From Microcystis aeruginosa NIES-843 (lineage in GTDB: Bacteria; Cyanobacteriota; Cyanobacteriia; Cyanobacteriales; Microcystaceae): a stretch of DNA of 32,000 bases. Position 1 is the stretch's first letter. Each line of letters begins with the position of its first letter. Location: assembly GCF_000010625.1 (NCBI RefSeq), contig NC_010296.1, forward strand, positions 4,620,001 through 4,652,000, in the 5' to 3' direction. The notes under the pieces are model-generated. The model saw nothing but the letters and a program-made list of their open reading frames with translations. It made no database searches and was not told the DNA's origin. The position numbers and the translations under genes are program-made. Positions 9,457-22,702 of this stretch are shown piece after piece.

Positions 9457-9775
9457 AGCAGTTAAAACTGATTTATCTGGCATCTGGGCTTGATAATAGC
9501 CCAATTTATCTGATTTAGTCCTTAAAGTCTTTAAATAATCGGTGGGAAATAATTCCACTGCTGTGTAGTTCTGTGAAATTAAAACAATCCTATGATGAGG
9601 CGTTTGTCAAGAGAACTAATGTTAAGATTGTTTTAGAAGGTCATGAAAGAAGCAATAGAAAAAGTCGTTTTAGCAATTAGGGGATAAAATTTCCGTCGAG
9701 AATAAAAATATTTGTTCCCTATCAAGTTGCGTCGATCTATGATATGGATAATCCATTTTTGTAGAAGCGTTGTTT

Positions 9776-11203
9776 ATGAATCAAAATCAGAGCGAGAACT
9801 TGGACGGACTGGAGAAATTTCTAGTTAACCGTCGAGCGGCCCCATCGTCTTCGAGCGGAAACAGAGAGCTAGATTACGATCGATTCTACGATGCTTGTGA
9901 CTCTCTCAAACCCCTGAAAATGAATGATGAAGATAGGAAATATTACACCGACTTCGCCAGTGTGAGAGGCGGTAAAATTATTGACAGGATCAAGAAAGAT
10001 GTTAAAACTTTGCAAAGAAGTGGCAATGATTCTAGTTATCAATTCTTTACAGGACATATTGGTGGGGGAAAATCCACCGAGTTAAATCGACTAACAGGAG
10101 AACTGCTTGAGGAGGGTTTCCACGTGGTTTATTTTATGTCTGATGAGTATTTAGATACTCATAACGTCGATATTCCCGATATTTTATTAGCGATCGCTCG
10201 TCAAGTAGTAGAGAATTTGGAAGAGATAGATATTCGTCTATTTCCGGGCTATTTTCGCCGATTACTGGGAGAAATAGCTGGGTTATTAACCACCCCCTTA
10301 GAACTCGATTCCGTCAATCTAAGTTTGGGGGTAGAACTAGCGAAAATTTCGGCAGAAATCAAGACCAGTCCCAAGGCTCGTAATCAATTGCGTACCTTTC
10401 TCGACTCTCGAACCGCCTCTTTAATTGAGTCCCTAAATGATGAGATTCTCAAACCCGCCATCGAAAAACTAAAACAAAAAGGGAAAAAAGGTTTAGTGGT
10501 GATCGTGGATAACCTAGAACGAATCGCCAATCAAATAATTCCTAACTATAACTGCACCCAACCAGAATATATCTTTATCAATCGGGGGAGCGTGCTGACT
10601 GAAATTAAATGTCATTTAGTCTATACTGTACCGCTGAGTTTACTTTTTTCTGCCCAAGCTGCGATACTTCTACAGCGCATTGGCAAAAGTACCTCGATTT
10701 TACCGATGATTTTGGCGGAAGAACGAGAAGGGACTGTTCACGAACAGGGATTGAAGTTACTCAAACAGATGGTGATGGCGAGAGCTTTTCCCGATGTGTC
10801 GCCAGAGGAACATCTAGAGCCTGATTTAATCACCCAAGTTTTCCAAGATGAAACCGTATTGAATCGCCTCTGTCAAATCAGTGGGGGTCATGTTCGTACT
10901 TTACTGTTAGTCTTACAAAGCTGTTTGCTGGATGATGATTTACCCATCTCACCCAACAGTTTAGAAAGAGTTATTCGCGAGTATCGAGACAATATGCTGG
11001 TGGGGATCGGTAGCAATGACTGGGAAATGTTGCGAAAAATCGATCGAGACAAACAACTCAGCAGTGACGTGGAGAATTATCAAGAATTTCCTCGACGATT
11101 GTGGGTTTTTGAGTATAGAGATGACCAAGGGCGATGGTTTGGCGTAAATCCCATGCTCAAAGAAACCGAACAATTTAAAAAAGAGTCTTCTAGACTAGGA
11201 TAG
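9776..11203 (+). CDS. standalone AAA+/STAND-like P-loop NTPase (~475 aa)
   Basis: Walker A GHIGGGKST at 10052-10078, Walker B LVVIVDNLE at about 10493-10519, and a sensor-2-like ISGGHVRTLLL, followed by a helical C-terminus. The ORF-track start at 9770 is TTG and the first ATG is at 9776. It lies 46 nt upstream of the giant gene on the same strand. Confidence 0.7.
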   Translation: MNQNQSENLDGLEKFLVNRRAAPSSSSGNRELDYDRFYDACDSLKPLKMNDEDRKYYTDFASVRGGKIIDRIKKDVKTLQRSGNDSSYQFFTGHIGGGKSTELNRLTGELLEEGFHVVYFMSDEYLDTHNVDIPDILLAIARQVVENLEEIDIRLFPGYFRRLLGEIAGLLTTPLELDSVNLSLGVELAKISAEIKTSPKARNQLRTFLDSRTASLIESLNDEILKPAIEKLKQKGKKGLVVIVDNLERIANQIIPNYNCTQPEYIFINRGSVLTEIKCHLVYTVPLSLLFSAQAAILLQRIGKSTSILPMILAEEREGTVHEQGLKLLKQMVMARAFPDVSPEEHLEPDLITQVFQDETVLNRLCQISGGHVRTLLLVLQSCLLDDDLPISPNSLERVIREYRDNMLVGIGSNDWEMLRKIDRDKQLSSDVENYQEFPRRLWVFEYRDDQGRWFGVNPMLKETEQFKKESSRLG

Positions 11204-11249
11204 AGATAGGCTCTCGTTCCCAGTTCCCTAACCCCACACTTTCCTAACC

Positions 11250-14200
11250 ATGGTCGGTAACTATAGCGATGATGTGATTATGGCTGACAATGATCGGGCG
11301 GTAAAAGTCTTAACCCGTGCTATTCGTACTGGCATAGGCAAGTTTTCTTTGAATTTAGCCCGTTGTAATTATTCTCAATTAAGAGAATCTATTCTCGATC
11401 GATTTCATCAAGAGAATAGCAGCTTCGATCTAGAAGAACTGACGCTCTCTCCACAAGCCACCAGACTTTTTGAGGAAATTGAAACTGTCTTGCGGCATCG
11501 GGAAAAAACACCATCAGCCCTAATTATTTTGGGGTTAGAACAAGTTGAAAGTCTTGAAACCCTTTTTTCTAATTTTAATCAAGTTAGAACCCAGTTTCAA
11601 AACAGCTTTCAATTCCCTCTCTTGTTATGGGTAACGGATGAAGTGTTGGTTTCGCTCCGACAAAATGCACCGGATTTTGTTAGTGGAGGGAAGTCTTTTT
11701 CCTTTCACTGGACAACCACAGAGTTAAGTGACTTTTTGCATAAAGCAGCGGATGAGTTATTTCGTGCCGTGCTGCAAAATGGGGCGATCGGTTTTTTACC
11801 CTACACATCTATTAATAGTACAAAACTGGCTGATTATCGTCGCCGTTACCAAGAAATCGCCTCAGCTTGGCAGGAACTAGAAAGAAGACAGATTGAATTG
11901 GAACAGAAACTCAGGGCTAGTTATATTTTCGCTCAGGGAGGAGATTGTTATGACCGCTCCTTGAAACCGCAACCGATCGAAATGCGCGTTGAGCTAGTTA
12001 AACAAGCTATCGAAAAATATCAAGAAAGTTTAGTAATTTGTCAGACAATTGCCGAAAAGACCGCCGAAGGAACTCTCGATTATTGCCTTAGTCTTTGTCA
12101 CCATCGTTTGGCTCTGTTAGAAAGCTCAAAAGCCAGAGAACATTGGCAAGAGGAGGAGAAATATCTCAGCAATGCCTGTCAAATCTTCGACAATAAAGAT
12201 GCCGAGATCGCTGCTAAATTACGCAATGAACTGGGGGGGGTGTTACAAAATCTGGAAAAATGGCCAGAATTGTCCCAATTGGCTGCCGACTCGATCGCCC
12301 TAGATAGTCAGTTACAAAATCCACTGCCTCTCGCCCAAGATTATAGTTTTCAAGCCAAAATTGCCCTGGAAAAGGCCAAGGAAACTAAAGAAAAACAGGA
12401 GGAGATACTAGAAGCAAGAAAGGCGGCTAGTTTAGCGCTACAGGCCTTGAAAAGACTAAAAAGAAGTCCGCAAATCCAAAGATGGCATACTGCCCGTTAC
12501 CTGTTGCTTCTGGCCCAGGCAAAAAAACATCTAGAGAAGTGGCAACTGGCGATTAAAACTCTCAAGCGCGTCTTGCAGACGATCGAGGATGCGAGAGATA
12601 AGCTGGCAGCCCACGATCACTATGAACCAGCACTACATATCGAAATTCTCGAAGAATTACAAGAGGTTTTTTTCCATCAGCGGCAATATGAGGAAGCTTT
12701 TCAGAAAAAACAAGAGATTTTGTTAGTTAAAGGGCAAAACGGGCTACTGGCCTTCGTGGGGGCTTCGAGTTTACGTCCTCCGGTTAGTCCCACGGGAGGA
12801 GAAGAAATTCCAGATCGGGCGATCGATGCCTCCGGTCGTCAGCAAGATGTGGAGGAAATTATCAGGAGGCTAAGTCCTCGGAATCAGAAAAAGCTGACGA
12901 TCGTTCTTGGTCCATCAGGAGTAGGTAAAACTTCCATGCTAGAAGCGGGATTAGTTCCCCAATTAAGACAAGAAATCTTCGAGGGCTTGAAAATAATGCC
13001 CTTATTCTTGCGTTTATCAAAAACAAGAGATTGGAGAGAAGAAATTCAGCAGGAGCTAGAAAAAGAAAGAAAACTGCTTAATATTCATGCTTTAGTTCAT
13101 GCAGAGTCAGAAAATACTGCGATCGCTACAGCTATTGAAAGTGATCCAGAAGCATTGATGATCGAGCGGCTGAAAAGTCAGCAAGATCAAGTATTTACCG
13201 TGTTGATTTTAGATCAATTTGAAGACTTTTTCTTTATTTGCAAAAATCCTCAAGAGAGGACGAGATTTTTTGATTTTTTAAAACAATGTTTCGGAATTAG
13301 CAATGTCTTGATTGTTATCTCGTTGCGAGAGGATTACCTGCACTATCTTCTCGAACTAGAGAAATATATTCAAGATAATCAGCAATCAGAAAGAACCACA
13401 GATGCTGATTATCAAGATGTCTTGAGCTATAAAAATCGTTATCCCCTTCATAATTTTACTAAGGAGAAAGCTAAAGAGCTAATTAGGGATTTAACCAGTA
13501 ATTCTCAATTTAAGCTAGAAGATAATTTGATTGAAAAATTAGTCGATGATTTAGCGGGAAATACCGAACAGGTACGACCGATCGAGCTACAGATCGTAGG
13601 AGCGCAACTGCAAGAGGAAGAAATCAGCAGTTTGGCAGAATATATAAAATTGGCAGAGGGAGAGAATAGCCCTAAACATAGCTTAATCAAAAAATACCTT
13701 AATGATGTGGTTAAGGCCTGTGGAGAAAAAAATAAAGAGATAGCCGATCTGGTGTTGTACTTATTAACTGATGAAGATGACAAAAGACCGCTCAAAACCT
13801 TGAAAGATTTTAGGGAAACTATCGAAGATAACGACGATATTCGATTGATTTTAGTCTTGGATATTTTTGTTCAATCAAAGCTAGTCGTAGTTTATAAAGA
13901 AACATCGGAAAAACAATACCAACTCCTGCATGATTATCTATCACGACTGATTCGAGAGCAATCGAAAGCGCGAGAGGAATGGTACAGGGCAAAGATTGAT
14001 AAAATTTCCAGAGAAGCGGCAGCAGCCGAAGCTAGGGCAGCCGCTGCCGAAGCCAAAGTTAAGCTACAGATAGATTTAGACGAGGCAATCAAGGCAAAAA
14101 ACGAGGCCGAACATCAGACAGAGAAGGCGAGAAAAAAATTATATGTGGTTGGTGCAATAGGTTTGATAACGACAATTGGCGCAATCATGTCGGGGTTGGC

Positions 14201-16631
14201 TTGGATAACTAGCGATCGTTTAACCAAGCAGAATAAAGCAGAAATAGATGGTGCGAGGGTCATAAAAAGTTTTAATTCAGGCTATGGGAATTTAGAGAAC
14301 TTGTTCTTTCGCGCCTGGCAAGCTGGACAACAGTTAAACGAACTTGTGAAGACTAATTCTTCTCAAGGATTTGATAGTTATCCGACGACATCCCCTTTAT
14401 TGGCACTTCAACAAACTTTCGAGACTATAGATAAACAGGATATTTATCGATACGATCTAGGCAAAGATGATAACGGTAAGTCTAGTAACATCATGGATGT
14501 TAATTTGCAACCAGATAAAAATATAGTTACTACTATTCATACTAATGGTCAAATTCTACAACGCCAGACTGATGCACAGGGAAACTACTCAAAACAGAAA
14601 GTGAAAGAACTTGCCAATATTTCTAATTTTACCTTTCAAGGTAAGAAGATAGAATTGAAGCAAATTAATCGCATTATTTTTAGTCCTGATGGGCAGAAAA
14701 TAGCCCTAGTGATCGGGGATGGAAATAGACAAATAGTTCTGATTTGGAAAAATTGGGAATCGTCCCCAAAAGAACCAACCCAAAAAGAACCAACTTATCA
14801 CTACGAGCATCCGGGTAATGTCAATCTTCTCAAGTTTGACCCAAATTCGCAATGGCTGATGACAGTATCGGGATCTCAAATTATTTTATACGATACAGTC
14901 AATCAGAAAAAAAAAGAATTCCTCTGGGAGATATCGCCAGAAAAACCGGTAAAAAACAGAATTAGTTTAGAAGATGTGACATCCCAAAAACATAGCCGAC
15001 CATCTCGACAATCATCGGGAAATCCATCATCGATAATTTTGAGTGCCGATCTTAGCCACAATAAGAACAATCCAAAACTAGCTTTAGGATTTAACAGTGG
15101 TGAAACGGCGATAGTTGATTTAAATAACTTAGCGAAAATTAGGACTATTCAGCCCCAGGTACAAAAAGCGGTAATTGCTCTAGATTTTAATTTCGATACG
15201 CAGCTTTTGGCGATCGGCTTTGAAAATGGCAGTCTGGTCAATTTCGACTTGACAAATAATGAGATCAAATCATGCCCATCGGAAGGACTTGTCTTCAGTA
15301 AATTTGAATTTATGCCCGATAGTCTCCTAGCAATTGGCTATAGAAATGGCCTGCTAAAAATTATTAGTAGAGAATGTCAGAAATTATTTCAATTTAAAGC
15401 CCATGACCGCGAGATACAAGGACTGCAATTATCTGGTGATCGTCAATGGTTAACTACCAATTCAGAACTAGAAGTGCGTCGCTGGAAACTAGACCCACGC
15501 CAAGAATTTGCTGTTAATCCTAAAACTTCCCTATATCAAGCGAGCTTGAGCAGTGATGGCAAGCTATTAGCCACTGCCCCCAATACAGGCATTGAACTCT
15601 GGAATTTATCTGATGAAAAAGAACCAGATAAACCATTTTACTCCCAAAACAAGTCTAATGGAAATACTGATCCGATAACCAGCATTAGTTTTCAACCTAA
15701 CAATAACCAGCCAGACCTTTTGGCCACGGGTTCCTGGGGGGGAATTCTTAGCCTCTGGAGGTTCCAATCACAAACTAACCACAGACTACGGGATCAAGCA
15801 GAGGTTTCTGTGCCTAATTCTGACCAGCCAAATTCACCTATCTGGAGTCTCACCTTTAGTCAAGATGGATCGTTGTTAGCAACCGGTTCCCGGGACGGTA
15901 TCATTCAAATTAGGAGTGTGGCGGCTCTCTTGAAAAATGATACCACTCCTCTTTGTCGAATATCTATCAATAGTGACGTATTGAGTATTGCTATTCGCCC
16001 CGATAATCAACAAATAGCTATAGGTTCAGCCAATGGACAAATTTATTTATTGAATTTACTTGATAATGGCGGATGTGTTTCTAATAAACAATTGGAACCT
16101 AAAAAGGATTTTAGCCATTTTGCGGCGGTGGTCACTGTTCAATACATACCCTATAAAGATAATCAATGGTTGTTGGCAACAGGTTCCGATGATCTAACGG
16201 CTCGTCTGTGGAGCCTCGACGGTAAGGAAAAAGTTAGATTTGAAGATCATGATGGCTCCGTAAGAGGAATTGCTTATCTTCCCAAAGACAAAGTTTTGGT
16301 GACCGCTTCCGAGGATCGTTCGGTGCGATTATGGACTTGGAAAGATGATCTCGAATCAATAGACAGTTCACAACCACTAAGTGGAGAATTAATCGCAAAA
16401 CATAATGGTCATATTCGACCAATCAGAGGTATTTTCTTCCGAGACCAACCTCGTCAACTCATCTCCATATCCACTGCACCTAAAATTCGTTTCTGGCCGA
16501 TTCCAGAAAGTAAGGATTATTTACATTCGCTAATGGATAATGCCTGTAAAGAAGTTCCTAATATGGAAGAAAATAAGCAAGAAATGGAGAAGATTTGCTC
16601 AAAAATACCAAAGCAGCCATCAGAACCTTAA
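11250..16631 (+). CDS. giant multidomain protein (1793 aa): degenerate P-loop-less N-module, helical/TPR-like repeats, nSTAND-like NTPase, Ala-rich coiled coil, single TM helix, WD40 repeats
   Basis: ATG at 11250. Walker A LGPSGVGKTSMLEAGLVPQL at 12909-12932 and Walker B VLILDQFEDFF at about 13203-13226. Coiled coil AAAAEARAAAAEAKVK lies at about 13990-14135. A hydrophobic 23-mer YVVGAIGLITTIGAIMSGLAWIT lies at about 14139-14211, preceded by KARKK. From about 14650 to the end there are repeated WD-type blades, for example LLATGSRDGIIQIRS, LLATGSDDLTARLWSL and VLVTASEDRSVRLWTW. Confidence 0.8.
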   Translation: MVGNYSDDVIMADNDRAVKVLTRAIRTGIGKFSLNLARCNYSQLRESILDRFHQENSSFDLEELTLSPQATRLFEEIETVLRHREKTPSALIILGLEQVESLETLFSNFNQVRTQFQNSFQFPLLLWVTDEVLVSLRQNAPDFVSGGKSFSFHWTTTELSDFLHKAADELFRAVLQNGAIGFLPYTSINSTKLADYRRRYQEIASAWQELERRQIELEQKLRASYIFAQGGDCYDRSLKPQPIEMRVELVKQAIEKYQESLVICQTIAEKTAEGTLDYCLSLCHHRLALLESSKAREHWQEEEKYLSNACQIFDNKDAEIAAKLRNELGGVLQNLEKWPELSQLAADSIALDSQLQNPLPLAQDYSFQAKIALEKAKETKEKQEEILEARKAASLALQALKRLKRSPQIQRWHTARYLLLLAQAKKHLEKWQLAIKTLKRVLQTIEDARDKLAAHDHYEPALHIEILEELQEVFFHQRQYEEAFQKKQEILLVKGQNGLLAFVGASSLRPPVSPTGGEEIPDRAIDASGRQQDVEEIIRRLSPRNQKKLTIVLGPSGVGKTSMLEAGLVPQLRQEIFEGLKIMPLFLRLSKTRDWREEIQQELEKERKLLNIHALVHAESENTAIATAIESDPEALMIERLKSQQDQVFTVLILDQFEDFFFICKNPQERTRFFDFLKQCFGISNVLIVISLREDYLHYLLELEKYIQDNQQSERTTDADYQDVLSYKNRYPLHNFTKEKAKELIRDLTSNSQFKLEDNLIEKLVDDLAGNTEQVRPIELQIVGAQLQEEEISSLAEYIKLAEGENSPKHSLIKKYLNDVVKACGEKNKEIADLVLYLLTDEDDKRPLKTLKDFRETIEDNDDIRLILVLDIFVQSKLVVVYKETSEKQYQLLHDYLSRLIREQSKAREEWYRAKIDKISREAAAAEARAAAAEAKVKLQIDLDEAIKAKNEAEHQTEKARKKLYVVGAIGLITTIGAIMSGLAWITSDRLTKQNKAEIDGARVIKSFNSGYGNLENLFFRAWQAGQQLNELVKTNSSQGFDSYPTTSPLLALQQTFETIDKQDIYRYDLGKDDNGKSSNIMDVNLQPDKNIVTTIHTNGQILQRQTDAQGNYSKQKVKELANISNFTFQGKKIELKQINRIIFSPDGQKIALVIGDGNRQIVLIWKNWESSPKEPTQKEPTYHYEHPGNVNLLKFDPNSQWLMTVSGSQIILYDTVNQKKKEFLWEISPEKPVKNRISLEDVTSQKHSRPSRQSSGNPSSIILSADLSHNKNNPKLALGFNSGETAIVDLNNLAKIRTIQPQVQKAVIALDFNFDTQLLAIGFENGSLVNFDLTNNEIKSCPSEGLVFSKFEFMPDSLLAIGYRNGLLKIISRECQKLFQFKAHDREIQGLQLSGDRQWLTTNSELEVRRWKLDPRQEFAVNPKTSLYQASLSSDGKLLATAPNTGIELWNLSDEKEPDKPFYSQNKSNGNTDPITSISFQPNNNQPDLLATGSWGGILSLWRFQSQTNHRLRDQAEVSVPNSDQPNSPIWSLTFSQDGSLLATGSRDGIIQIRSVAALLKNDTTPLCRISINSDVLSIAIRPDNQQIAIGSANGQIYLLNLLDNGGCVSNKQLEPKKDFSHFAAVVTVQYIPYKDNQWLLATGSDDLTARLWSLDGKEKVRFEDHDGSVRGIAYLPKDKVLVTASEDRSVRLWTWKDDLESIDSSQPLSGELIAKHNGHIRPIRGIFFRDQPRQLISISTAPKIRFWPIPESKDYLHSLMDNACKEVPNMEENKQEMEKICSKIPKQPSEP

Positions 16632-16642
16632 TTGCCAAGAAT

Positions 16643-17824
16643 TTAAACAATTCCTAATTGTTTCTCTAGAGCCTCTAAGATAATATCAGCAATAATTTTT
16701 TTGGTGTATCGACAATAGATTGTTTCTGTACTCCGAAAAGTGCCATTCTCATAGTATTTATTAGCGGGAGCGCCACCACCACAGAGCGAAAAATAAGGGC
16801 AGGTTTTTTGACACATTTTAACCCCTGCTTGGATATCTCGATCGAGTTTTTTAAACTTGTCAGTTTGGTCAATTGATCGCAGGTCGTGCTGAGTTATATT
16901 TCCTAAAATAAAATCGCCATAAACATCACTTTTCATGGATAATAGTTCTGGAGAAAAAGTCGAAAAATCCCCATTATGAGCGATATTAATCATGGTAAAA
17001 GGGGTGAATTGACCTTGAAAACTATACTTCTGACAGATCAGGCTGTAAAGATCATCAAATTCCCGAACTTGCAGGAGGTTTTCAGCTTCTTTAACCCTTC
17101 CATAGAATCTTTGCATAAAGTTGCGATAACGCTCGTCAACCCCGTTGTTTTGCAGAGAAGATGAACGATTTGTTCCCTCTATTTCCTCGATATTGAAACC
17201 CACATATCGAATCTTATTTTCGAGGAAAAAATCAAAAATCTCATCGGGATAATCTAAGGATATATCGCTCAAAACTGCGATAACAGAAAAGGGAATCTGA
17301 TTATTTTGTAGTAACTTGATACCTCTCATTGTACTTGCATGAGTTCCCTTGCCGGTGCGAGTTCTACGATGAGCATCATGGATAAAATCCGGCCCGTCGA
17401 TACTAACCCCTATTCTTAGGTCGTATTCTTTGATAAAATCACACCATTCTTGCGTGATCATTGTGGCGTTAGTTTGCAAGGAATGCTCGATTTGATAGGG
17501 ATTAGGATTAATTTCTTGATTTAATTTATCGATGATTTGGATAGCAGCAGTATAAAAAGAAATAGGCACTGTTAGCGGTTCTCCCGCGTGCCAAACGATC
17601 GTAAATCCCCGCAAATCAATCAAATCACTAGCAAAAATATTTCTAAAAATTGGTTCTATCAGTTCTAGGGATAGTTTGTATTTTAGCTGGCGATCGGGCA
17701 AGTAACAATAGTCACAATCTAAATTACAAAAAGTTGTGGGTTGAATAACCACTAACTTGACTGAACCCTTTTCGGAAGGTTTATATCCCCAATTGTCTAT
17801 ATATTGTCTGAGAAGTTCAATCAT
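16643..17824 (-). CDS. radical SAM/SPASM peptide maturase (anaerobic-sulfatase-maturase-like; GRRM/OscB-type cyclophane-forming clade suspected)
   Basis: CxxxCxxC motif (FCNLDCDYCY) at 17705-17728, GEPL, and a C-terminal auxiliary-cluster Cys pattern CQKTCPYFSLCGGG...YCRY. Two candidate substrate genes sit immediately upstream on the same strand. Confidence 0.85.
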   Translation of the reverse strand: MIELLRQYIDNWGYKPSEKGSVKLVVIQPTTFCNLDCDYCYLPDRQLKYKLSLELIEPIFRNIFASDLIDLRGFTIVWHAGEPLTVPISFYTAAIQIIDKLNQEINPNPYQIEHSLQTNATMITQEWCDFIKEYDLRIGVSIDGPDFIHDAHRRTRTGKGTHASTMRGIKLLQNNQIPFSVIAVLSDISLDYPDEIFDFFLENKIRYVGFNIEEIEGTNRSSSLQNNGVDERYRNFMQRFYGRVKEAENLLQVREFDDLYSLICQKYSFQGQFTPFTMINIAHNGDFSTFSPELLSMKSDVYGDFILGNITQHDLRSIDQTDKFKKLDRDIQAGVKMCQKTCPYFSLCGGGAPANKYYENGTFRSTETIYCRYTKKIIADIILEALEKQLGIV

Positions 17825-17989
17825 TTTTACCCGTGGAATTATGATAATAGTTCTCGCTAAAAATAAGATGTAAGGTTTTTGTGTGTCAGGAGTAAGTGTA
17901 TATAGACAAAAATTAGCCTTTACACAGGATTCAAAAATAAGAGGGGCTACATTTAAGCTATTTCAGGAGTGATAATTGCTCGAAAACTA

Positions 17990-18307
17990 TTAGTAATTTC
18001 CCCAATTTGCCCAGTTTCTCCAGCCATTGTACCAATCGCCCCACTGTGCCAATCTTTGTTCTGATTGTTCCTCTAAATTATCTATTGGTTTATTCGGGGA
18101 GTCCGACGCATAATCTTGACTGTTTAATTCCTGTTTATGCAATTCTAGCTGTTCTCTCACCCGATCCAAACGTTCCTGCACACCCAACCTAGAGGCGGCC
18201 TTAGCTTCTATTGATAAGACTTTCGATTGACCGTAGCCGAAAAGTGTTGCTAGAGTCGTAGTCAGCAAAATTGCTAGTTTTTGCCAAAAGTTACGTTTCT
18301 GTCTCAT
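17990..18307 (-). CDS. RiPP precursor candidate A (105 aa) with C-terminal W-x-N/D core
   Basis: ATG at 18307 with GAGG 5 nt upstream. It has a signal-peptide-like N-terminus (MRQKRNFWQK-LAILLTTTLATLFGYG...EAKA|AS) and the leader helix ERLDRVREQL. The C-terminal core WGDWYNGWRNWANWGNY is at 17993-18043. Confidence 0.7.
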   Translation of the reverse strand: MRQKRNFWQKLAILLTTTLATLFGYGQSKVLSIEAKAASRLGVQERLDRVREQLELHKQELNSQDYASDSPNKPIDNLEEQSEQRLAQWGDWYNGWRNWANWGNY

Positions 18308-18355
18308 AGTGCCTCGTGAAAATAATGTAATACATACTACAAATTGTTTGAGGAT

Positions 18356-18700
18356 TTATCGATTAGCTTGAGGTTCATTACCCCAATTGTTCCAATTGTG
18401 CCAAGGAGTAGGGGGAGTGGGAATTGTACCCCCACCAGAACCGCCATCATCTGTTTTTTTAGCGATCGCTTGCCCCCCTATTTTAACCGATTTATCTAAA
18501 GTCTGTGGCTTTTCATCGATAATGCGCTGCCGACCGATCATTTCCCGAACTTTTGCTAATCGCCCCTCTAGATTAGACTGATGATCAGCCTGAGTATCGG
18601 CCGCTAATAGAGCTTTATTCCCACTAGGACTAAAAACAAAAGTGACGAGCGTGGCCAAAATCGTGGTTAATATTTTCGGAAGCAGATGTTTTAAATTCAT
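18356..18700 (-). CDS. RiPP precursor candidate B (114 aa) with C-terminal W-x-N core
   Basis: ATG at 18700. It has a signal-peptide-like N-terminus (MNLKHLLPK-ILTTILATLVTFVF...ALLA|AD), the leader helix GRLAKVREMI and a Gly-rich linker DDGGSGGG. The core WHNWNNWGN is at 18377-18403, followed by EPQANR. Confidence 0.7.
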   Translation of the reverse strand: MNLKHLLPKILTTILATLVTFVFSPSGNKALLAADTQADHQSNLEGRLAKVREMIGRQRIIDEKPQTLDKSVKIGGQAIAKKTDDGGSGGGTIPTPPTPWHNWNNWGNEPQANR

Positions 18701-18821
18701 ACTACACCCGGGAGTTTGAATGGTCTAATTGTAGTCGCTCAAATTCAATCTGTAAACTTTTAGAGGGAGGAAATTAAGAATTCTGCTACATTAATGAATA
18801 TTCTAGACGAGAGACAAAAAA

Positions 18822-19250
18822 ATGACCCTCGATCGAGTGATCGTCGGTTGGCGAGAATGGCTCGATTTACCTGATTTAGGCATTACCAAAATAAAAGCCA
18901 AGATTGATACAGGCGCTCGCTCCTCGGCCTTACACGCTTTTCATCTGCATCCTTTTCGAGATGGCGATCGCAATTGGCTGCGCTTTCAAGTTCATCCCTA
19001 CCAAAAAGATAGTCACCACACTGTCACCACTACCGCAGAAATCCTCGAATGGCGACAGGTAAAAAATTCTGGGGGTCAAAGTCAACTACGTCCTGTTATT
19101 AGAACAAGTGTATTGCTTGGTGGTCGTCAATGGGCGATCGAATTAACTTTAACTAATCGCGATGTCATGGGTTTTCGGATGTTATTAGGACGAGAAGCGC
19201 TGAAAAAAGGCTTTCTTGTCCATCCGAATAAGTCTTTTTTACTGAGTTAA
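18822..19250 (+). CDS. retropepsin-like aspartic protease domain protein (family annotated as 'putative ATP-dependent zinc protease', COG4067-like)
   Basis: 142 aa. The string VGWREWLDLPDLGITKIKAKIDTGARSSALHA contains the D-T-G-A aspartic protease signature and the family's typical N-terminal context. Confidence 0.7.
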   Translation: MTLDRVIVGWREWLDLPDLGITKIKAKIDTGARSSALHAFHLHPFRDGDRNWLRFQVHPYQKDSHHTVTTTAEILEWRQVKNSGGQSQLRPVIRTSVLLGGRQWAIELTLTNRDVMGFRMLLGREALKKGFLVHPNKSFLLS

Positions 19251-19258
19251 GTTATATT

Positions 19259-19454
19259 TAGGGTTTGCGGCAAAAAGTTTTTCCTAGGGGCAGGGTGTGG
19301 GTTTTACCGATTTTGAGGGGGTCAATTACCTAATTTTCAGGGAAAAAGTCCAGGAATTTTCCCCCTGATCACTCCCAGGGCCGGTACTTTTTGATTGACA
19401 AAAAGTCTAAAGATATTATCCAACAAGGTTTTTAGATTTATTCAGCCAGCCCTA
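19259..19454. repeat. ~196-bp dispersed intergenic element, copy 1 (MITE-like or structured spacer element)
   Basis: Near-identical to 24241-24458 in the same orientation. It fills the whole spacer between convergent genes and overlaps the stop of the GH88-like gene. Internal hairpins include ACTTTTTG-attga-CAAAAAGT and CAGGGAAAA...TTTTCCCCCTG. Confidence 0.85.
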
Positions 19455-20879
19455 AGTAGCGGGTAAATCTTGGTATTCAGCCAAAGCATTTATAAAAAAC
19501 AAGTCTCCCCAAATTAAACCCGTATCATAGATTTGGCTGGGTTGAATCGCGGCGGGATGATGATAACAACCATGACGCAATAAACTCATCTCTGGGGCGG
19601 TTTCGTCGGGAAAATAGGCAAAAGAAGTCAAATTCAAGAGAGTATTATCGATCGCCTCTCGATAGGTTCCATAACTAGGATCACTGCTGGGTAAAGCTTT
19701 TAATAAGCGAATCATCCCCGCCACAGCGATCGCCGCTGCCGAAGAATCCTTTTCCGTAGCGGCATTTTTTTGCAAGGCATAATCAAAGTCCCAGGGAGGA
19801 ATAAAATCCCCGGCGCGTCTTTGTCCACCGGGCCAGCGATCGGGCAAATTGTCCAGATAATAATTAATGGCATCCTTGGCAATGGTTAACATTTCTGGAT
19901 CGCCGGTGTAAATATAGGCCGTCGTGGCAGCATAAATAAACCAAGCTTGACCCCGGGACCAAGTGCTATCATCGCGCCAGCCCTGTTTTCCCTCATTAAA
20001 TAAGAAATTTCTATAGGTGGGAGAGTTGACATTTTGATCAAAATAGCCTCTTTGCCAAGTTCCCGTTTTACCCGGGCGACGGTTAGCCCCAAAGGTGCGG
20101 CTAATGGTGCGGATGTGGGAAAGGGCCTTTTCTTGCCAATCTTTTGCCTCCTTGGGGTCAGGATTGTGGAGACTTGCCCAGAGCATTTGTTCTATATTGA
20201 TCGTATGGTCGATAAAAACCTGCCAATGTTCTTGCTGATCGGTGCGATCGGCCTTGCGTAACCAGCCAAAAGTCCCGATATCGGTGTGATAACTCCCTTT
20301 GCCATCCTGAAAAGGTTGCGCTAGTTGTCTGGCGGACTGTAAAGTTATCTCTAAAGCTGCCTGTTTTTCCTGGCCCCGTCCCGACTCAAACCAAGGAGCA
20401 AACACCAGCACATTATTGAGAGCGATGTCTTTGTTCTTCAAACTCGCTTCTTTTAAGGGATCGCTCCATTTTTTCGCGGCAGCTGCCCAAAATCCCGCAT
20501 CCATAGGGTTTGATTCTAAGTCAGCAATTTTCCATAATAAAGCAGCAAAAGCTCCGGCTGCCCAAAAATCAGCCTTTTCTAACTTCCAAGTGCCGGGGGT
20601 GGGACTATTCCTCCTCCGTAGCCAATTGAAGAAATTAAAACCCGATGGCTCTGGATGGGTAAGATAGGGATAGAGAATTCCCCGACGGGCATAACTATCG
20701 AGATAGTCGATCGTGGTAGCTAGTTTAATCTTAGCCAGATCGAGACAGAGCTTAATTCTTGCAGCTAGGGGCATTTTAGCCCGCAATTCCGCCGCCGATT
20801 GGGGACGATGGACAATCCGGACGGCCACCGCACCGATCGCCGCCCCCGTACCCATAATAATTAGCGTGCGTCGCTTCAA
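19452..20879 (-). CDS. glycoside hydrolase family 88-like protein (unsaturated glucuronyl hydrolase-like) with an RR-containing N-terminal signal-like segment
   Basis: DDSTWSRGQAWFIYAATTAYIYTGDP and IPPWDFDY resemble GH88 motifs as I recall them. TTG start at 20879 with AGGAG 8 nt upstream. The N-terminus is (M)KRRTLIIMGTGAAIGAVAV. Confidence 0.55.
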   Translation of the reverse strand: MKRRTLIIMGTGAAIGAVAVRIVHRPQSAAELRAKMPLAARIKLCLDLAKIKLATTIDYLDSYARRGILYPYLTHPEPSGFNFFNWLRRRNSPTPGTWKLEKADFWAAGAFAALLWKIADLESNPMDAGFWAAAAKKWSDPLKEASLKNKDIALNNVLVFAPWFESGRGQEKQAALEITLQSARQLAQPFQDGKGSYHTDIGTFGWLRKADRTDQQEHWQVFIDHTINIEQMLWASLHNPDPKEAKDWQEKALSHIRTISRTFGANRRPGKTGTWQRGYFDQNVNSPTYRNFLFNEGKQGWRDDSTWSRGQAWFIYAATTAYIYTGDPEMLTIAKDAINYYLDNLPDRWPGGQRRAGDFIPPWDFDYALQKNAATEKDSSAAAIAVAGMIRLLKALPSSDPSYGTYREAIDNTLLNLTSFAYFPDETAPEMSLLRHGCYHHPAAIQPSQIYDTGLIWGDLFFINALAEYQDLPAT

Positions 20880-20890
20880 ATTCCCGACTC

Positions 20891-22702
20891 CTAAGCTGGA
20901 TAGATGCGAATACGGCGATTCGGTTCCTCTCCGAAGCTATCGGATTGGAGACGGTAATGTTCCACTAATTCGTGTTGCATTTTCCGCACTTTCGCCGATC
21001 GCGGCAGTAACTCCACCGGTTGGCCGGTAGGGATAACGATTTGTTCCACCGCTAACCGGGCCTCCTCCAAAGCTTCGATCTCGTCATCGCTACCGCTGCG
21101 GGCAAATAAACGCATATCCGCACCTTCCTGATTCATCGGGTCATCAATGCCCAAAATCCGCTTTAAACCGCGAGAAATTTGGGGCAGGGTATTGGATTTG
21201 ATGCCGTGGATGGGAATTTGTCTTACTTTGGCAATTTGCCGCAATTTTGACTGATTTTTAACGTGGGAACGCAGGGCCAGCACTGCGTCGGCCTCCTGTA
21301 AATCTTTGGTCAAAACGATCGGCAAATCTAGGGCCTGTACTACCTGTTCGATCGGGGCGCGACTGACTCCGTAGGGATAGACATAAACCGGCCAATCTTC
21401 GCCATTGGGACCGGGGACGCGGACTTTTTCCGTTTCCGGTTCTTCCTGCAGCCAGGATTGTTCGAGGAGGCGATCAAAATCGTTTTCCCGGTTGAGTCCG
21501 CCTGCACCGAAACGGGCCACGGGAGTCATCCGGCCATCGGCCCGCCATCCCTTGGGTTTATCCATTTCCGGCAGATAATTGCCGCGCAAAGGGGTCAACT
21601 TTTCCGGTTTTGGTTCTTCCTGAGTGACCTGTACTTTTCCCTCCTCATCTACCCAACGGATTTGGGCAATTGCTTCCCGTCCCCGCAGCAGTTGGTCGAT
21701 CGTGGTGGATACGTCCTCGTGGATGACCCAGCGCTGACGTTCCAACATTTCGATGGCAATCTCAAAGGTGGGGGGTGCTTTGCGTTCTAAAACGGTTTTT
21801 TGGGAACCCCGGCGGCGTGCTTCTTCGTCTCCGAGAGTTACTGCTTGAATTCCCCCAACTAAATCCGATAAAGTCGGGTTTTTAATTAAATTTTCCAGTT
21901 GATTGCCGTGGGCGGTTCCCACTAACTGCACCCCGCGTTCGGCGATCGTGCGGGCGGCCAGAGCTTCTAATTCCGTACCGATCTCATCAATCACGATCAC
22001 CTCTGGCATATGGTTTTCCACTGCTTCGATCATGACTTGATGCTGCAATTCCGGACGGGCCACCTGCATCCGACGAGCGCGACCGATGGCCGGATGGGGA
22101 ATATCTCCATCCCCGGCGATTTCGTTGGAGGTGTCGATAATCACTACCCGTTTATTGAGGTCGTCGGCTAAAACTCGGGCTATTTCCCGGAGAGCGGTGG
22201 TTTTCCCTACCCCCGGACGACCGAGCAGCAGCAGGGATTTACCCGTTTCCACTAGGTCGTTAATCAGGGTGATCGTACCGAAAACGGCCCGACCGATACG
22301 ACAGGTTAAACCGATAATTTCCCCGTCTCGATTGCGAATGGCACTGATGCGGTGCAGGGTGCGTTCAATCCCGGCGCGATTATCGCCGCTAAAACTGCCC
22401 ACCCTGGCGATCGAATACTGGATTTCTTCTTTTGAGATCGGTTCGTCCCCCAGATCGATCGCCCCATCGGGAAAACGCGCTTCTGGTATGCGTCCCAAAT
22501 CCATAACTACTTCGATCAGTTGATGCTGCCGCGGGTGTTCCTCGATTTTGCCGCGAATCCGCGCGGGTAGAATTGCCAAGAGTTTGTTTAAATCGTCGGT
22601 CACTGGCATCCGAGAGGAGGGTAGGGTTTCTGGCATTAATAGTAAAAGGTTTTGGCGATAATTGGCTGTTTTTATTGCCAAGATTTTCTTGGGGTCTAAC
22701 AC
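20891..22702 (-). CDS. ycf45: AAA ATPase with C-terminal R3H nucleic-acid-binding domain (Ycf45/SpoIIIAA-like)
   Basis: Walker A LLLLGRPGVGKTT and Walker B VIVIDEIGT. The R3H-like tail is LLPRSAKVRKMQHELVEHYRLQSDSFGEEPNRRIRIY. The start is uncertain: GTG at 22702, ATG at 22636 or ATG at 22609. Confidence 0.75.
   Translation of the reverse strand: MLDPKKILAIKTANYRQNLLLLMPETLPSSRMPVTDDLNKLLAILPARIRGKIEEHPRQHQLIEVVMDLGRIPEARFPDGAIDLGDEPISKEEIQYSIARVGSFSGDNRAGIERTLHRISAIRNRDGEIIGLTCRIGRAVFGTITLINDLVETGKSLLLLGRPGVGKTTALREIARVLADDLNKRVVIIDTSNEIAGDGDIPHPAIGRARRMQVARPELQHQVMIEAVENHMPEVIVIDEIGTELEALAARTIAERGVQLVGTAHGNQLENLIKNPTLSDLVGGIQAVTLGDEEARRRGSQKTVLERKAPPTFEIAIEMLERQRWVIHEDVSTTIDQLLRGREAIAQIRWVDEEGKVQVTQEEPKPEKLTPLRGNYLPEMDKPKGWRADGRMTPVARFGAGGLNRENDFDRLLEQSWLQEEPETEKVRVPGPNGEDWPVYVYPYGVSRAPIEQVVQALDLPIVLTKDLQEADAVLALRSHVKNQSKLRQIAKVRQIPIHGIKSNTLPQISRGLKRILGIDDPMNQEGADMRLFARSGSDDEIEALEEARLAVEQIVIPTGQPVELLPRSAKVRKMQHELVEHYRLQSDSFGEEPNRRIRIYPA

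Follow-up and report, generated by a model that had tools for sequence, protein, structure and literature searches.

This locus raises the question of what a radical SAM maturase and the two small genes preceding it make, and what the product does for its producer. The chemistry of triceptides is well described; their role for the producing organisms is not addressed in the literature consulted. The genes lie in a 32,000-nt stretch of the Microcystis aeruginosa NIES-843 genome (the window). Judged from its sequence, the locus is likely to be a GrrM/OscB-type triceptide maturation system. The enzyme family, the cyclophane chemistry and an antiSMASH rule are already known. The precursors, with Gly-poor cores of stacked W-x-N/D motifs (W-stack precursors), are a rare and unannotated class, possibly already noted in Nat Chem 2020, JACS 2022 or ACS Chem Biol 2024.

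Table 1. Features of the locus, with positions counted from the first letter of the window
Feature	Position	Strand	Basis
P-loop ATPase, 477 aa, Walker A GHIGGGKST	9770..11203	+	weak ATPase_2/NPHP3_N similarity (Pfam)
nSTAND1 NTPase (STAND), 1793 aa	11250..16631	+	Pfam; linkage across genera
STAND, predicted TM helix, about residues 966-990	14145..14219	+	hydropathy and charge rules
GrrM/OscB-family cyclophane-forming radical SAM maturase, 393 aa	16643..17824	-	TIGR04261, Pfam Radical_SAM, AF2 model, Cys pattern
Maturase, codons of C338, C342, C348 and C371	within 16712..16813	-	
Maturase, CxxxCxxC motif CNLDCDYC, residues 33-40	17705..17728	-	
Precursor B, 105 aa	17990..18307	-	ORF, translation, relatives, HHalign
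Precursor B, core WGD-WYN-G-WRN-WAN-WGN-Y	17993..18043	-	
Precursor B, leader helix VQERLDRVREQL	18146..18181	-	
Precursor A, 114 aa	18356..18700	-	ORF, translation, architecture of relatives
Precursor A, core WHN-WNN-WGN	18377..18403	-	
Precursor A, leader helix LEGRLAKVREMI	18536..18571	-	
Promoter-like site TTTACA, 17 nt spacer, TACAAT	18728..18756	-	consensus scan, 10/12 matches, consensus match only
RimB-like retropepsin-type aspartic peptidase, 142 aa	18822..19250	+	PF05618, 128.7 bits

ORF calling and translation place the maturase and both small upstream genes on the minus strand, at exactly the coordinates claimed in the first-pass annotation. Precursor A consists of a signal-peptide-like N-terminus (about residues 1-33), a leader helix, a Gly/Pro linker, a core of three W-x-N units and the follower EPQANR; it ends in TPWHNWNNWGNEPQANR before the stop codon. 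Precursor B has a signal-peptide-like N-terminus and a leader helix, followed by the pre-core motif RLAQW; its core of five W-x-N/D units lies at the C-terminus, which reads QWGDWYNGWRNWANWGNY up to the stop codon. These runs are not due to chance. The window holds 510 stop-to-stop frames with a length of 30 aa or more, and only precursors A and B (three and five units) have at least three W-x-[ND] inside 20 residues; 100 shuffled windows reach two at most (per-position expectation 0.0014). On sequence grounds, both small ORFs are real precursors.

Neither precursor matches a curated family in NCBIfam-type HMMs or Pfam. The GrrA/OscA1 model TIGR04260 also fails to match five other W-stack precursors; three Gly-rich precursors, used as positive controls, score 50-128 bits against its cut-off of 31. 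When profiles of 20 W-stack and 16 Gly-rich precursors are compared with HHalign, the W-stack and GrrA/OscA1 leaders align with 95% probability (E 3.8e-8), over the 29-column leader helix only. The leaders of A and B had been described as divergent; their sequences do differ, but the family architecture of basic n-region, hydrophobic core and conserved helix is common to both. Relatives of precursor B form 22 representative clusters in 1.84 billion proteins, and the architecture is identical in all 22. Signal-like features are found across 16 W-stack precursors, with an n-region charge of +2 to +4 (0 in one case), a hydrophobic core (H12) of 1.8-3.0 and small-x-small sites; signal peptides and STAND topology were called by hydropathy and charge rules only.

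The maturase scores 598.5 bits against TIGR04261 (GrrM/OscB; cut-off 310) over the full length of the model (1-363 of 363), and the clade name GRRM/OscB given in the first-pass annotation is correct. Pfam PF04055 (Radical_SAM) matches at 70.4 bits. Other maturase models score below their cut-offs: anaerobic sulfatase maturase TIGR03942 (182 vs 349.45 bits), AmcB (313 vs 425), YhhB (160 vs 445), FxsB (130 vs 370), XyeB (74 vs 450), DynA (159 vs 450) and DarE (107 vs 650). C33, C37 and C40 of the CxxxCxxC motif are invariant among 27 homologues. The C-terminus had been called a Cys-rich SPASM tail. It does contain family-conserved Cys, but only four (C338, C342, C348 and C371, in the pattern CxxxCx5CGGG...C); Pfam SPASM scores 18.6 bits, below its gathering score of 21.5. 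The four residues are invariant in the family and fall on the Aux II ligand positions when aligned with anSME; in the same alignment all four Aux I ligand positions are without Cys, as they are in ChlB. This pattern fits one auxiliary cluster. As a novelty it was rejected, since at least one other triceptide maturase, ChlB, has it too. An AF2 model of the maturase (pLDDT 82.7) finds its best structural matches in anSMEcpe and the triceptide maturase ChlB (TM 0.73-0.81).

Stacked W-x-N/D precursors accompany every close relative of the maturase (62-70% identity). More widely, 59 GrrM-like loci have 1.5 kb or more of upstream sequence, and 51 of them contain an aromatic-x-N/D ORF; the W-x-N tails are kept beside homologues, as the triceptide reading had anticipated. 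Across 16 W-stack precursors, N (77) and D (19) are the only residues at the third motif position, and x varies freely (G, R, N, S, H, P, D and others); of 80 pairs of successive motifs, 63 are contiguous. The Gly content of W-stack cores is 0.11-0.19 (W about 0.31), in contrast to 0.25-0.46 Gly in OscA-type cores. In an NJ tree the W-stack maturases are monophyletic and occupy their own branch. We infer that these loci form a cyanobacterial clade of their own, marked by Gly-poor cores and a conserved pair of precursors, A and B. Across genera, A has a short core and a Pro/Ser-rich follower, and B ends in WGN-Y/F/W; the earlier proposal of two products from one enzyme fits this pair. The dense all-Trp core exists as described, but it belongs to a recurring subfamily and is not a one-off.

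The cluster is seen in only a few Microcystis sequences. In strains with identical or near-identical maturases, precursor A differs by whole 9-bp W-x-N units and by substitutions at x, with W and N fixed; the precursor B core is invariant among the Microcystis variants. The promoter-like site precedes the start codon of precursor A by about 28 nt, and a single promoter probably serves both precursors and the maturase. The 171-nt spacer that separates precursor B from the maturase was considered as an attenuator or terminator; this was rejected, as there is no terminator-like site and the spacer folds no better than its shuffles (z -0.91).

The STAND gene is convergent with the maturase gene and abuts it, with 11 bp between stop codons; the ATPase gene is directly upstream of STAND on the same strand. 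STAND consists of an N-terminal region of about 520 aa, the nSTAND1 domain at residues 529-898 (PF20703, 111.9 bits vs 27.1), a coiled coil, one TM helix and WD40 propellers at about 1240-1740 (122 bits). The TM helix has a basic N-flank and is conserved in hydrophobicity, not in sequence. As it lies between NTPase and sensor, the WD40 half is predicted to be extracytoplasmic. The N-terminal 520 aa have no Pfam, NCBIfam or PADLOC match and no significant BLASTP similarity to the neighbouring ATPase; a homology search with this region returns only three relatives, at 30% identity. No defence-system model in PADLOC or NCBIfam matches STAND or the ATPase. Within Microcystis, dN/dS is 0.44-0.93 in the TM-linker and WD40 half of STAND, 0.06-0.10 in its N-terminus and at most 0.16 in the maturase. 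No covariation is evident between precursor A core variants and WD40 variants in the few Microcystis strains compared. Both the signal peptides of the precursors and this conserved NTPase partner were overlooked in the first-pass annotation.

STAND and the ATPase appear to be members of the system by virtue of conserved linkage and position. Precursors A and B, maturase, ATPase and STAND are kept together in Microcystis, Xenococcus and Crocosphaera, and ATPase orthologues (41-43% identity) hold the equivalent position in the latter two. STAND adjoins the maturase in Microcystis, Crocosphaera, Xenococcus, Pleurocapsa, Leptolyngbya and another cyanobacterium. Single TM helices directly follow the NTPase domain in every GrrM-linked STAND examined; the C-terminal part is WD40 or an unassigned domain, predicted to lie outside the cytoplasm. 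No paper connecting an nSTAND1 NTPase with a radical SAM peptide-modification operon was found in the searchable literature. Whether the peptides are functionally coupled to the STAND module is finely balanced.

The strongest alternative keeps the triceptide chemistry and makes the product a free-standing secreted natural product (an antimicrobial, a metal- or surface-binding peptide or a structural envelope peptide), with STAND and ATPase co-inherited in a mobile or recombining island. Several observations are in its favour. In cyanobacteria the STAND operon converges on the maturase gene and is not co-transcribed with it; nSTAND1 is not detectable at five W-stack loci with 6-8 kb flanks (L011, L015, L028, L034 and L100); and an ABC transporter stands beside the module in Xenococcus. 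At a further locus (L153) a homologous ATPase and nSTAND1 pair, without TM helix or WD40, has no radical SAM gene nearby, so the association is not obligatory for the NTPase family. In addition, nSTAND/WD40 genes are very numerous in cyanobacteria.

Against co-inheritance, the linkage holds while maturase identity falls from 100% to 57% and flanking genes become wholly different. It also survives in Crocosphaera, where the set is still together but the precursors have been relocated beyond the STAND operon, apart from the enzyme. nSTAND1 is found beside 9 of 14 W-stack GrrM loci and none of 27 Gly-rich loci (Fisher 5.7e-6, with loci treated as independent despite shared phylogeny). The linkage recurs, with the genes arranged differently, in three or four unrelated lineages: TIR and nSTAND1 genes are co-directional with precursor and radical SAM genes in Arenicellales, Methylumidiphilus, a soil metagenome and Dehalococcoidia, which represent independent GrrM lineages. 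TIR domains are confined to these non-cyanobacterial counterparts, which include proteobacterial and Chloroflexota versions. Furthermore, the conserved module contains no protease and no exporter at the loci examined in other genera. The free-standing product is a credible reading that we nevertheless consider somewhat improbable.

A second alternative accepts that the maturase acts on the peptides and changes the outcome: bonding through a different indole carbon, cyclisation of alternate motifs only (if contiguous rings clash), or larger or darobactin-type fused rings. The W-stack enzymes are only 46-58% identical to Gly-rich-associated enzymes and sit on their own branch, contiguous motifs leave no spacer, and regiochemistry varies among triceptide and daropeptide enzymes (PMC11002830; title of PMC11851443). 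However, conservation is strict at precisely two positions, W at i and N/D at i+2, and x varies freely; the GrrM/OscB score is very high, and near-contiguous pairs such as WRNGWRD occur in the Gly-rich substrates of close relatives. A different ring chemistry is therefore unlikely, although not all of the back-to-back motifs may be cyclised.

A third alternative, that the enzyme is a sulfatase or cofactor maturase or is unrelated to the small ORFs (which would be exported Trp-rich proteins or non-genes), can draw on anSMEcpe as a top or near-top PDB match by structure and sequence and on the lack of a curated family for the precursors, but is effectively refuted, and retains a negligible probability, given an anSME HMM score of half its cut-off, the missing Aux I Cys, the absence of a sulfatase gene among the neighbouring genes in the window, small ORFs conserved in position, architecture and motif over dozens of loci, and a leader in common with proven GrrA substrates.

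The triceptide reading, which the first-pass annotation had proposed, is thus supported by family score, leader homology to GrrA/OscA1, contiguous W-x-N/D tails and the reported chemistry of OscB. Under this reading, the cytoplasmic maturase would bind the leader helix of precursors A and B and abstract the Asn/Asp C-beta hydrogen by 5'-deoxyadenosyl radical chemistry. Each W-x-N/D motif would yield one three-residue cyclophane with a loss of 2 Da, giving up to three rings in A and five in B and a rigid, protease-resistant poly-indole tail. The modified peptides would then leave via Sec. A cytoplasmic radical SAM enzyme, anSME, modifies Sec-signal-bearing sulfatases ahead of export; this order is a precedent for the one suggested here. 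After cleavage by signal peptidase, about 75-85 aa would remain as the product.

The exported tails might then work with the WD40 sensor of the membrane STAND, whether as its ligand, its co-receptor or a bait, and not as free-standing antibiotics. It is a tentative proposal that they are dedicated partners (ligand, self-signal or bait) of this sensor, with RiPP modification wired into an immune, allorecognition or cell-death switch and the number of W-x-N units and the x residues forming a specificity code. A specific assignment of the peptides as ligand and STAND as receptor is doubtful.

The RimB-like peptidase gene, oriented divergently to precursor A, lies beside the cluster in every Microcystis contig examined and is absent from the loci of other genera; its score against NF052261 is 123 bits (cut-off 200). 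As a leader protease it was rejected, being a Microcystis-only neighbour with an NCBIfam score below cut-off; at most it is a candidate for the processing protease, and it is probably no more than a neighbour. An exact-match look-up with this protein returned cluster-bearing contigs only and no empty site.

Since the precursors look exported, the product may be a periplasmic or surface protein of about 80 residues with a stapled tail and not a small antibiotic. W-stack precursors, made up almost wholly of contiguous cyclophane motifs, offer a stringent test of stapling density and a route to rigid poly-indole peptides. Their recurrent pairing with TM-anchored nSTAND1 proteins (TIR/WD40) provides a testable hypothesis of native function, in which peptide and receptor act in an NLR-like manner. 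For Microcystis bloom biology, the cluster varies exactly where specificity would be expected.

The nearest known system is the OscB/OscA (GrrM/GrrA) triceptide system of Oscillatoriales, reportedly described by Nguyen and colleagues in Nat Chem in 2020 and by Purushothaman and colleagues in ACS Chem Biol in 2024. In both systems the enzyme belongs to the same curated family, the motif logic is aromatic-x-Asn/Asp and the precursor genes lie immediately upstream of the enzyme gene; the precursors begin with a hydrophobic N-terminus, continue with an ExRLxxI/V leader helix and finish in a C-terminal repeat core. Unlike the Gly-rich, spaced cores of OscA type, those in the window are Gly-poor and contiguous; the precursors fail TIGR04260, the enzyme falls in a separate clade, and this clade has an A/B precursor pair and an ATPase and nSTAND1-TM-WD40 partner absent from Gly-rich loci. 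OscB is reported to link Trp-C7 (or Phe-C4) to the C-beta of Asn/Asp two residues downstream (PMC11002830). Characterised OscB substrates are Gly-rich with spaced motifs, according to the title of Purushothaman 2024 (cited in PMC11851443).

The window maturase shares a radical SAM core and a reduced SPASM-like C-terminus with XncB/XyeB, MscB/FxsB, YhhB, AmcB and ChlB, all of which act on omega1-X2-X3 motifs. ChlB (9GM3/9GMC) also has the CxxCx5CGGG...C pattern without Aux I Cys, and is the top structural match by TM-score (0.77-0.81). Enzymes that form three-residue cyclophanes (3-CyFEs) differ in their preference for aromatic residue or acceptor (PMC11002830). In all characterised triceptides, the core peptide is proteolytically released just before the first cyclophane motif (PMC12912966). 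DarE and DynA are rSAM/SPASM relatives and form cross-links at the Trp side chains of short ribosomal peptides bound for the cell envelope, and a common origin of darobactin/dynobactin maturases with 3-CyFEs has been proposed (PMC12912966); each of their products derives from one short core and has a fused bicyclic scaffold of W-x-W type, whereas tandem independent W-x-N rings are predicted here. Together with ChlB, anSMEcpe (4K36) is the closest solved fold, but anSME converts Cys/Ser to formylglycine and carries two auxiliary clusters, whereas GrrM has none of the four Cys that ligate Aux I.

The nSTAND1 clade occurs in the conflict systems that multicellular bacteria possess (Kaur, Burroughs, Iyer, Aravind; PMC8195603). 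The window STAND resembles nSTAND1/TIR conflict systems and NACHT-WD40 receptors in joining an NTPase to C-terminal WD40, in the TIR genes or fusions of its non-cyanobacterial counterparts and in a sensor half that evolves fast within the species. Unlike those systems, it has no PADLOC model, carries a TM helix between NTPase and sensor, and is linked to a radical SAM peptide-modification operon.

Three successive ORFs on the minus strand occupy 16643..18700 of the window: two small precursor genes, A and B, followed by the gene for a GrrM/OscB-type radical SAM maturase, here called rSAM. ORFs re-derived on this strand match every coordinate of the first-pass annotation exactly. Its reading of the region as a triceptide-like locus holds, by family membership and precursor conservation. 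The window has 510 stop-to-stop frames of 30 aa or longer, and only precursors A and B contain three or more W-x-[N/D] motifs per 20 residues; the maximum in 100 shuffled windows is two, and chance is ruled out as the source of these runs. A promoter-like site (10/12 matches) lies 28 nt 5' of precursor A, and neither a terminator nor a significant hairpin was found in the spacer between precursor B and rSAM, consistent with one transcript for all three genes.

Features of the window and of compared loci (handles beginning with L denote loci or contigs outside the window)
Feature	Location	Strand	Description
P-loop ATPase	9770..11203	+	477 aa, 5' of STAND gene
STAND protein	11250..16631	+	1793 aa; nSTAND1 residues 529-898; WD40 propellers about 1240-1740
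STAND C-terminal half	14130..16631		residues 961-1793
Radical SAM protein (rSAM)	16643..17824	-	393 aa; CNLDCDYC = residues 33-40
Family-invariant Cys of rSAM	16712..16813		C338, C342, C348, C371
Precursor B	17990..18307	-	105 aa, C-terminus ...RLAQWGDWYNGWRNWANWGNY
Precursor A	18356..18700	-	114 aa, C-terminus ...TPWHNWNNWGNEPQANR
Precursor A core	18377..18403		variable among Microcystis strains
RimB-like peptidase	18822..19250	+	retropepsin-type aspartic peptidase, divergent from precursor A
475-aa ORF	19452..20879	-	no Pfam or NCBIfam match
603-aa protein	20891..22702	-	SpoIIIAA-like AAA ATPase + PTPase-like domain + R3H
Loci with A-core variants	L081 9602-9952; L082 496-840; L090-L092; L145 4514-4867
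GrrM + nSTAND1 linkage	L148, L151, L001, L044, L041, L098, L048; window 9770..16631
Second Microcystis GrrM paralogue	L055 5974-7134; L014 6001-7131		51% identity
Candidate tailoring enzymes in GrrM loci	L088 2254-3054; L016 7179-7811; L004 4591-5097; L009 7433-7945
ORFs 3' of rSAM, STAND-less loci	L011 7251-8063; L015 7162-7980		~270 aa
Dehalococcoidia small ORF	L048 5647-5964		105 aa
ATPase + N-domain-nSTAND1 pair	L153 7629-11604		TARA marine contig

rSAM scores 598.5 bits (cut-off 310) on TIGR04261, titled 'cyclophane-forming radical SAM/SPASM peptide maturase GrrM/OscB' in NCBIfam. Scores on the AmcB model (313 bits, cut-off 425) and the anaerobic sulfatase maturase model (182 bits, cut-off 349) fall under their cut-offs, as do those on the YhhB, DynA, FxsB, DarE and XyeB models, all lower than 182. 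By this profile-HMM classification, proposed as a check in the first-pass annotation, rSAM is a GrrM/OscB enzyme and not a sulfatase maturase; at the level of sequence, its family membership is secure.

An AlphaFold2 model of rSAM (27 homologues as input, pLDDT 82.7) finds its best structural matches in anSMEcpe (4K36) and ChlB (9GM3/9GMC), with TM scores of 0.73-0.81; the latter is a triceptide maturase, complexed with its substrate in these entries. The C-terminal part had been described as a Cys-rich SPASM tail. Just four Cys in this part are invariant in the family. Alignment places them on the Aux II ligands of anSME, and none of the four Aux I ligand positions is Cys in GrrM-family enzymes. 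ChlB has the same Cys pattern, with Aux II-type Cys kept and Aux I Cys absent, so the trait is common to rSAM and another triceptide maturase. Because both GrrM-family enzymes and ChlB are without Aux I Cys, the name 'SPASM' probably overstates the cluster content of the GrrM family.

About 100 loci encoding relatives of rSAM were surveyed. Of these, 59 GrrM-like loci have 1.5 kb or more of upstream sequence, and in 51 of the 59 one to three small same-strand ORFs end in aromatic-x-N/D repeats; repeat-tailed ORFs thus adjoin homologous maturases, as the locus reading had anticipated. Most of the repeat-tailed ORFs are Gly-rich (GGFRNGGFRN...) and match TIGR04260 'GrrA/OscA1' at 50-128 bits. 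Precursors A and B and five similar peptides do not match this model. Their type, here called W-stack, has a Gly-poor core of contiguous W-x-N/D units. Its layout is that of the family: the n-region is basic and leads into a hydrophobic core, after which come the conserved helix h-E-x-R-L-x-x-V-R-E, a polar spacer terminating in (L/I)(A/S)QW and the motif core. Profile-profile comparison of the leader helix in 20 W-stack and 16 Gly-rich peptides gives 95% probability (E 3.8e-8). Together with the layout, this indicates that W-stack peptides are relatives of GrrA that have diverged and carry another kind of core.

In 16 W-stack precursors, motif position 3 holds only N (77 cases) or D (19 cases), the middle residue is unconstrained, and 63 of 80 adjacent motif pairs are contiguous. 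With precursor B as query, phmmer run exhaustively against 1.84 billion representatives returned only 22 proteins, all of W-stack architecture. The homology and conservation of the precursors and their motif constraints are thereby shown.

In a neighbour-joining tree, rSAM sits in a monophyletic cyanobacterial clade with a relative at 70% identity and enzymes from Xenococcus, Crocosphaera, a Chroococcidiopsidaceae MAG, Pleurocapsa and Leptolyngbya PCC 7375. Its sister is a large Gly-rich clade; non-cyanobacterial W-stack lineages branch deeper. Every member of rSAM's clade has W-stack precursors, and the A/B pair recurs throughout: A-type precursors have few motifs and then a Pro/Ser-rich follower, and B-type precursors end in WGN-Y/F/W. 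This recurrence supports the earlier suggestion of two distinct products from one enzyme.

Microcystis contigs with rSAM identical or near-identical to that of the window differ in precursor A. Its core reads WHN-WNN-WGN, WHN-WGN-WGN, WHN-WHN-WNN-WGN, WDN-WHN-WNN-WGN or WHN-WTN-WGN-WGN, and strain EAWAG127a has seven motifs behind an unchanged leader; alleles of 3, 4 or 7 motifs thus occur. The differences are indels of a 9-bp unit and substitutions at the x position; W and N are constant. Cross-linking through W and N, with x free, would be expected to leave such a pattern. The precursor A core is a fast-evolving cassette; the precursor B core is invariant in the same comparison.

Simple sequence rules (no trained predictor) give Sec signal peptide or signal-anchor features in all 16 W-stack precursors, a trait overlooked in the first-pass annotation. 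The n-region charge is +2 to +4, with one exception at 0; next comes a hydrophobic core 12 or more residues long, with small-x-small sites after it. Gly-rich GrrA peptides have similar N-terminal features. anSME, a related enzyme, acts on signal-peptide-bearing sulfatases in the cytoplasm, ahead of export; a 'modify, then export' order for W-stack peptides therefore has a precedent.

Convergent with rSAM, across a gap of 11 bp, lie genes for an nSTAND1-TM-WD40 NTPase (STAND, PF20703) and a P-loop ATPase; this partner was also overlooked. STAND has a single hydrophobic helix (residues about 966-990) whose N-flank is basic. All GrrM-linked STANDs examined have one strong transmembrane (TM) helix directly C-terminal to the NTPase domain. 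The linkage is recurrent. In Xenococcus, two precursors and rSAM are followed by convergent STAND and ATPase genes; in Crocosphaera, rSAM and the convergent pair are followed by precursors A and B. STAND adjoins rSAM without the ATPase in Leptolyngbya and the 70% relative, and is split in Pleurocapsa. Genes flanking the module are unrelated from genus to genus.

Independent GrrM lineages, whose nSTAND1-linked rSAMs all score above the TIGR04261 cut-off, show the same association. Arenicellales and Methylumidiphilus MAGs encode a TIR-like gene, nSTAND1, precursor and rSAM on one strand; a soil metagenome contig reads precursor, rSAM, TIR, TIR, nSTAND1-WD40; and in a Dehalococcoidia MAG a TIR-nSTAND1-TM-WD40 fusion lies directly 5' of a small ORF and rSAM. 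The 105-aa product of this ORF, whose tail reads ...FDKCFLNQGTWCCTHAEPPGDDPVLE, has neither a signal peptide nor a W-x-N run and so may represent another type of substrate.

With adequate flanks, nSTAND1 was found in 9 of 14 W-stack loci versus 0 of 27 Gly-rich loci (Fisher 5.7e-6, kinship ignored). Its absence from the other five W-stack loci counts against or limits a STAND partnership, as does the cyanobacterial arrangement, which is convergent and not operonic. The same holds for the TARA marine contig: it carries a homologous ATPase and N-domain-nSTAND1 pair without TM/WD40, has photosystem genes in its flanks, and shows no rSAM within 9 kb of the pair. The NTPase core is thus a module that also serves with other sensors.

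Parts of the module are under sharply different selection within Microcystis. dN/dS is 0.16 or less for rSAM (identical in 3/4 comparisons), 0.06-0.10 for the N-terminal 520 aa of STAND, 0.22-0.28 for the ATPase and 0.44-0.93 for the TM-linker and WD40 half of STAND. The C-terminal half of STAND, predicted to be extracytoplasmic, shows a mosaic identity pattern against contigs L081 and L090-L092. No covariation of A-core and WD40 alleles is visible among the few Microcystis strains compared, a further point against or limiting the STAND partnership.

The RimB-like peptidase flanks the cluster in all Microcystis contigs seen and not in other genera, so a processing role is putative. The neighbouring 475-aa ORF and 603-aa protein were seen solely in Microcystis contigs and are therefore probably unrelated to the cluster. 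A second GrrM paralogue is present in the Microcystis genomes LEGE 91341 and LSC13-02, away from any aromatic-x-N precursor; the enzyme either is an orphan or acts on substrates encoded elsewhere. In L055, the one locus inspected for this, an MltA-like gene lies 5' of the paralogue.

Some GrrM loci contain candidate tailoring enzymes. In a W-stack locus from Chroococcidiopsidaceae, a gene for an Asp/Asn beta-hydroxylase (PF05118) lies 5' of the precursor. Inspection of Gly-rich loci by eye shows, on the 3' side, an ORF resembling a 2OG-oxygenase and membrane ORFs resembling fatty-acid hydroxylases. STAND-less W-stack loci in Isosphaeraceae and Binataceae MAGs carry ~270-aa ORFs directly 3' of rSAM; these ORFs have no Pfam match, their N-termini look alike, and they may be an alternative partner.

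OscB is reported in a review (PMC11002830) to form three-residue cyclophanes of two kinds, Trp-C7 to Asn/Asp-Cbeta and Phe-C4 to Asn-Cbeta. By analogy, each motif would receive one Trp-C7 to Asn/Asp-Cbeta ring, giving three in A and five in B. The peptides would be exported by Sec to the compartment predicted for the WD40 domain. Gene linkage and this shared compartment suggest that the stapled tails may work together with the sensor of STAND, as its ligand, a self-signal or a bait.

In the literature searched, no paper links STAND NTPases to radical SAM peptide modification. The enzyme family is already annotated and its chemistry described, and antiSMASH has a triceptide rule in version 7.1 and later (PMC10767862). 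New are the unannotated class of contiguous, all-Trp precursors (W-rich GRR precursors were possibly mentioned earlier in the primary triceptide literature), the variation of the core from strain to strain, and the recurrent pairing with predicted membrane-anchored nSTAND1/TIR/WD40 proteins, which is the aspect deserving experiment.
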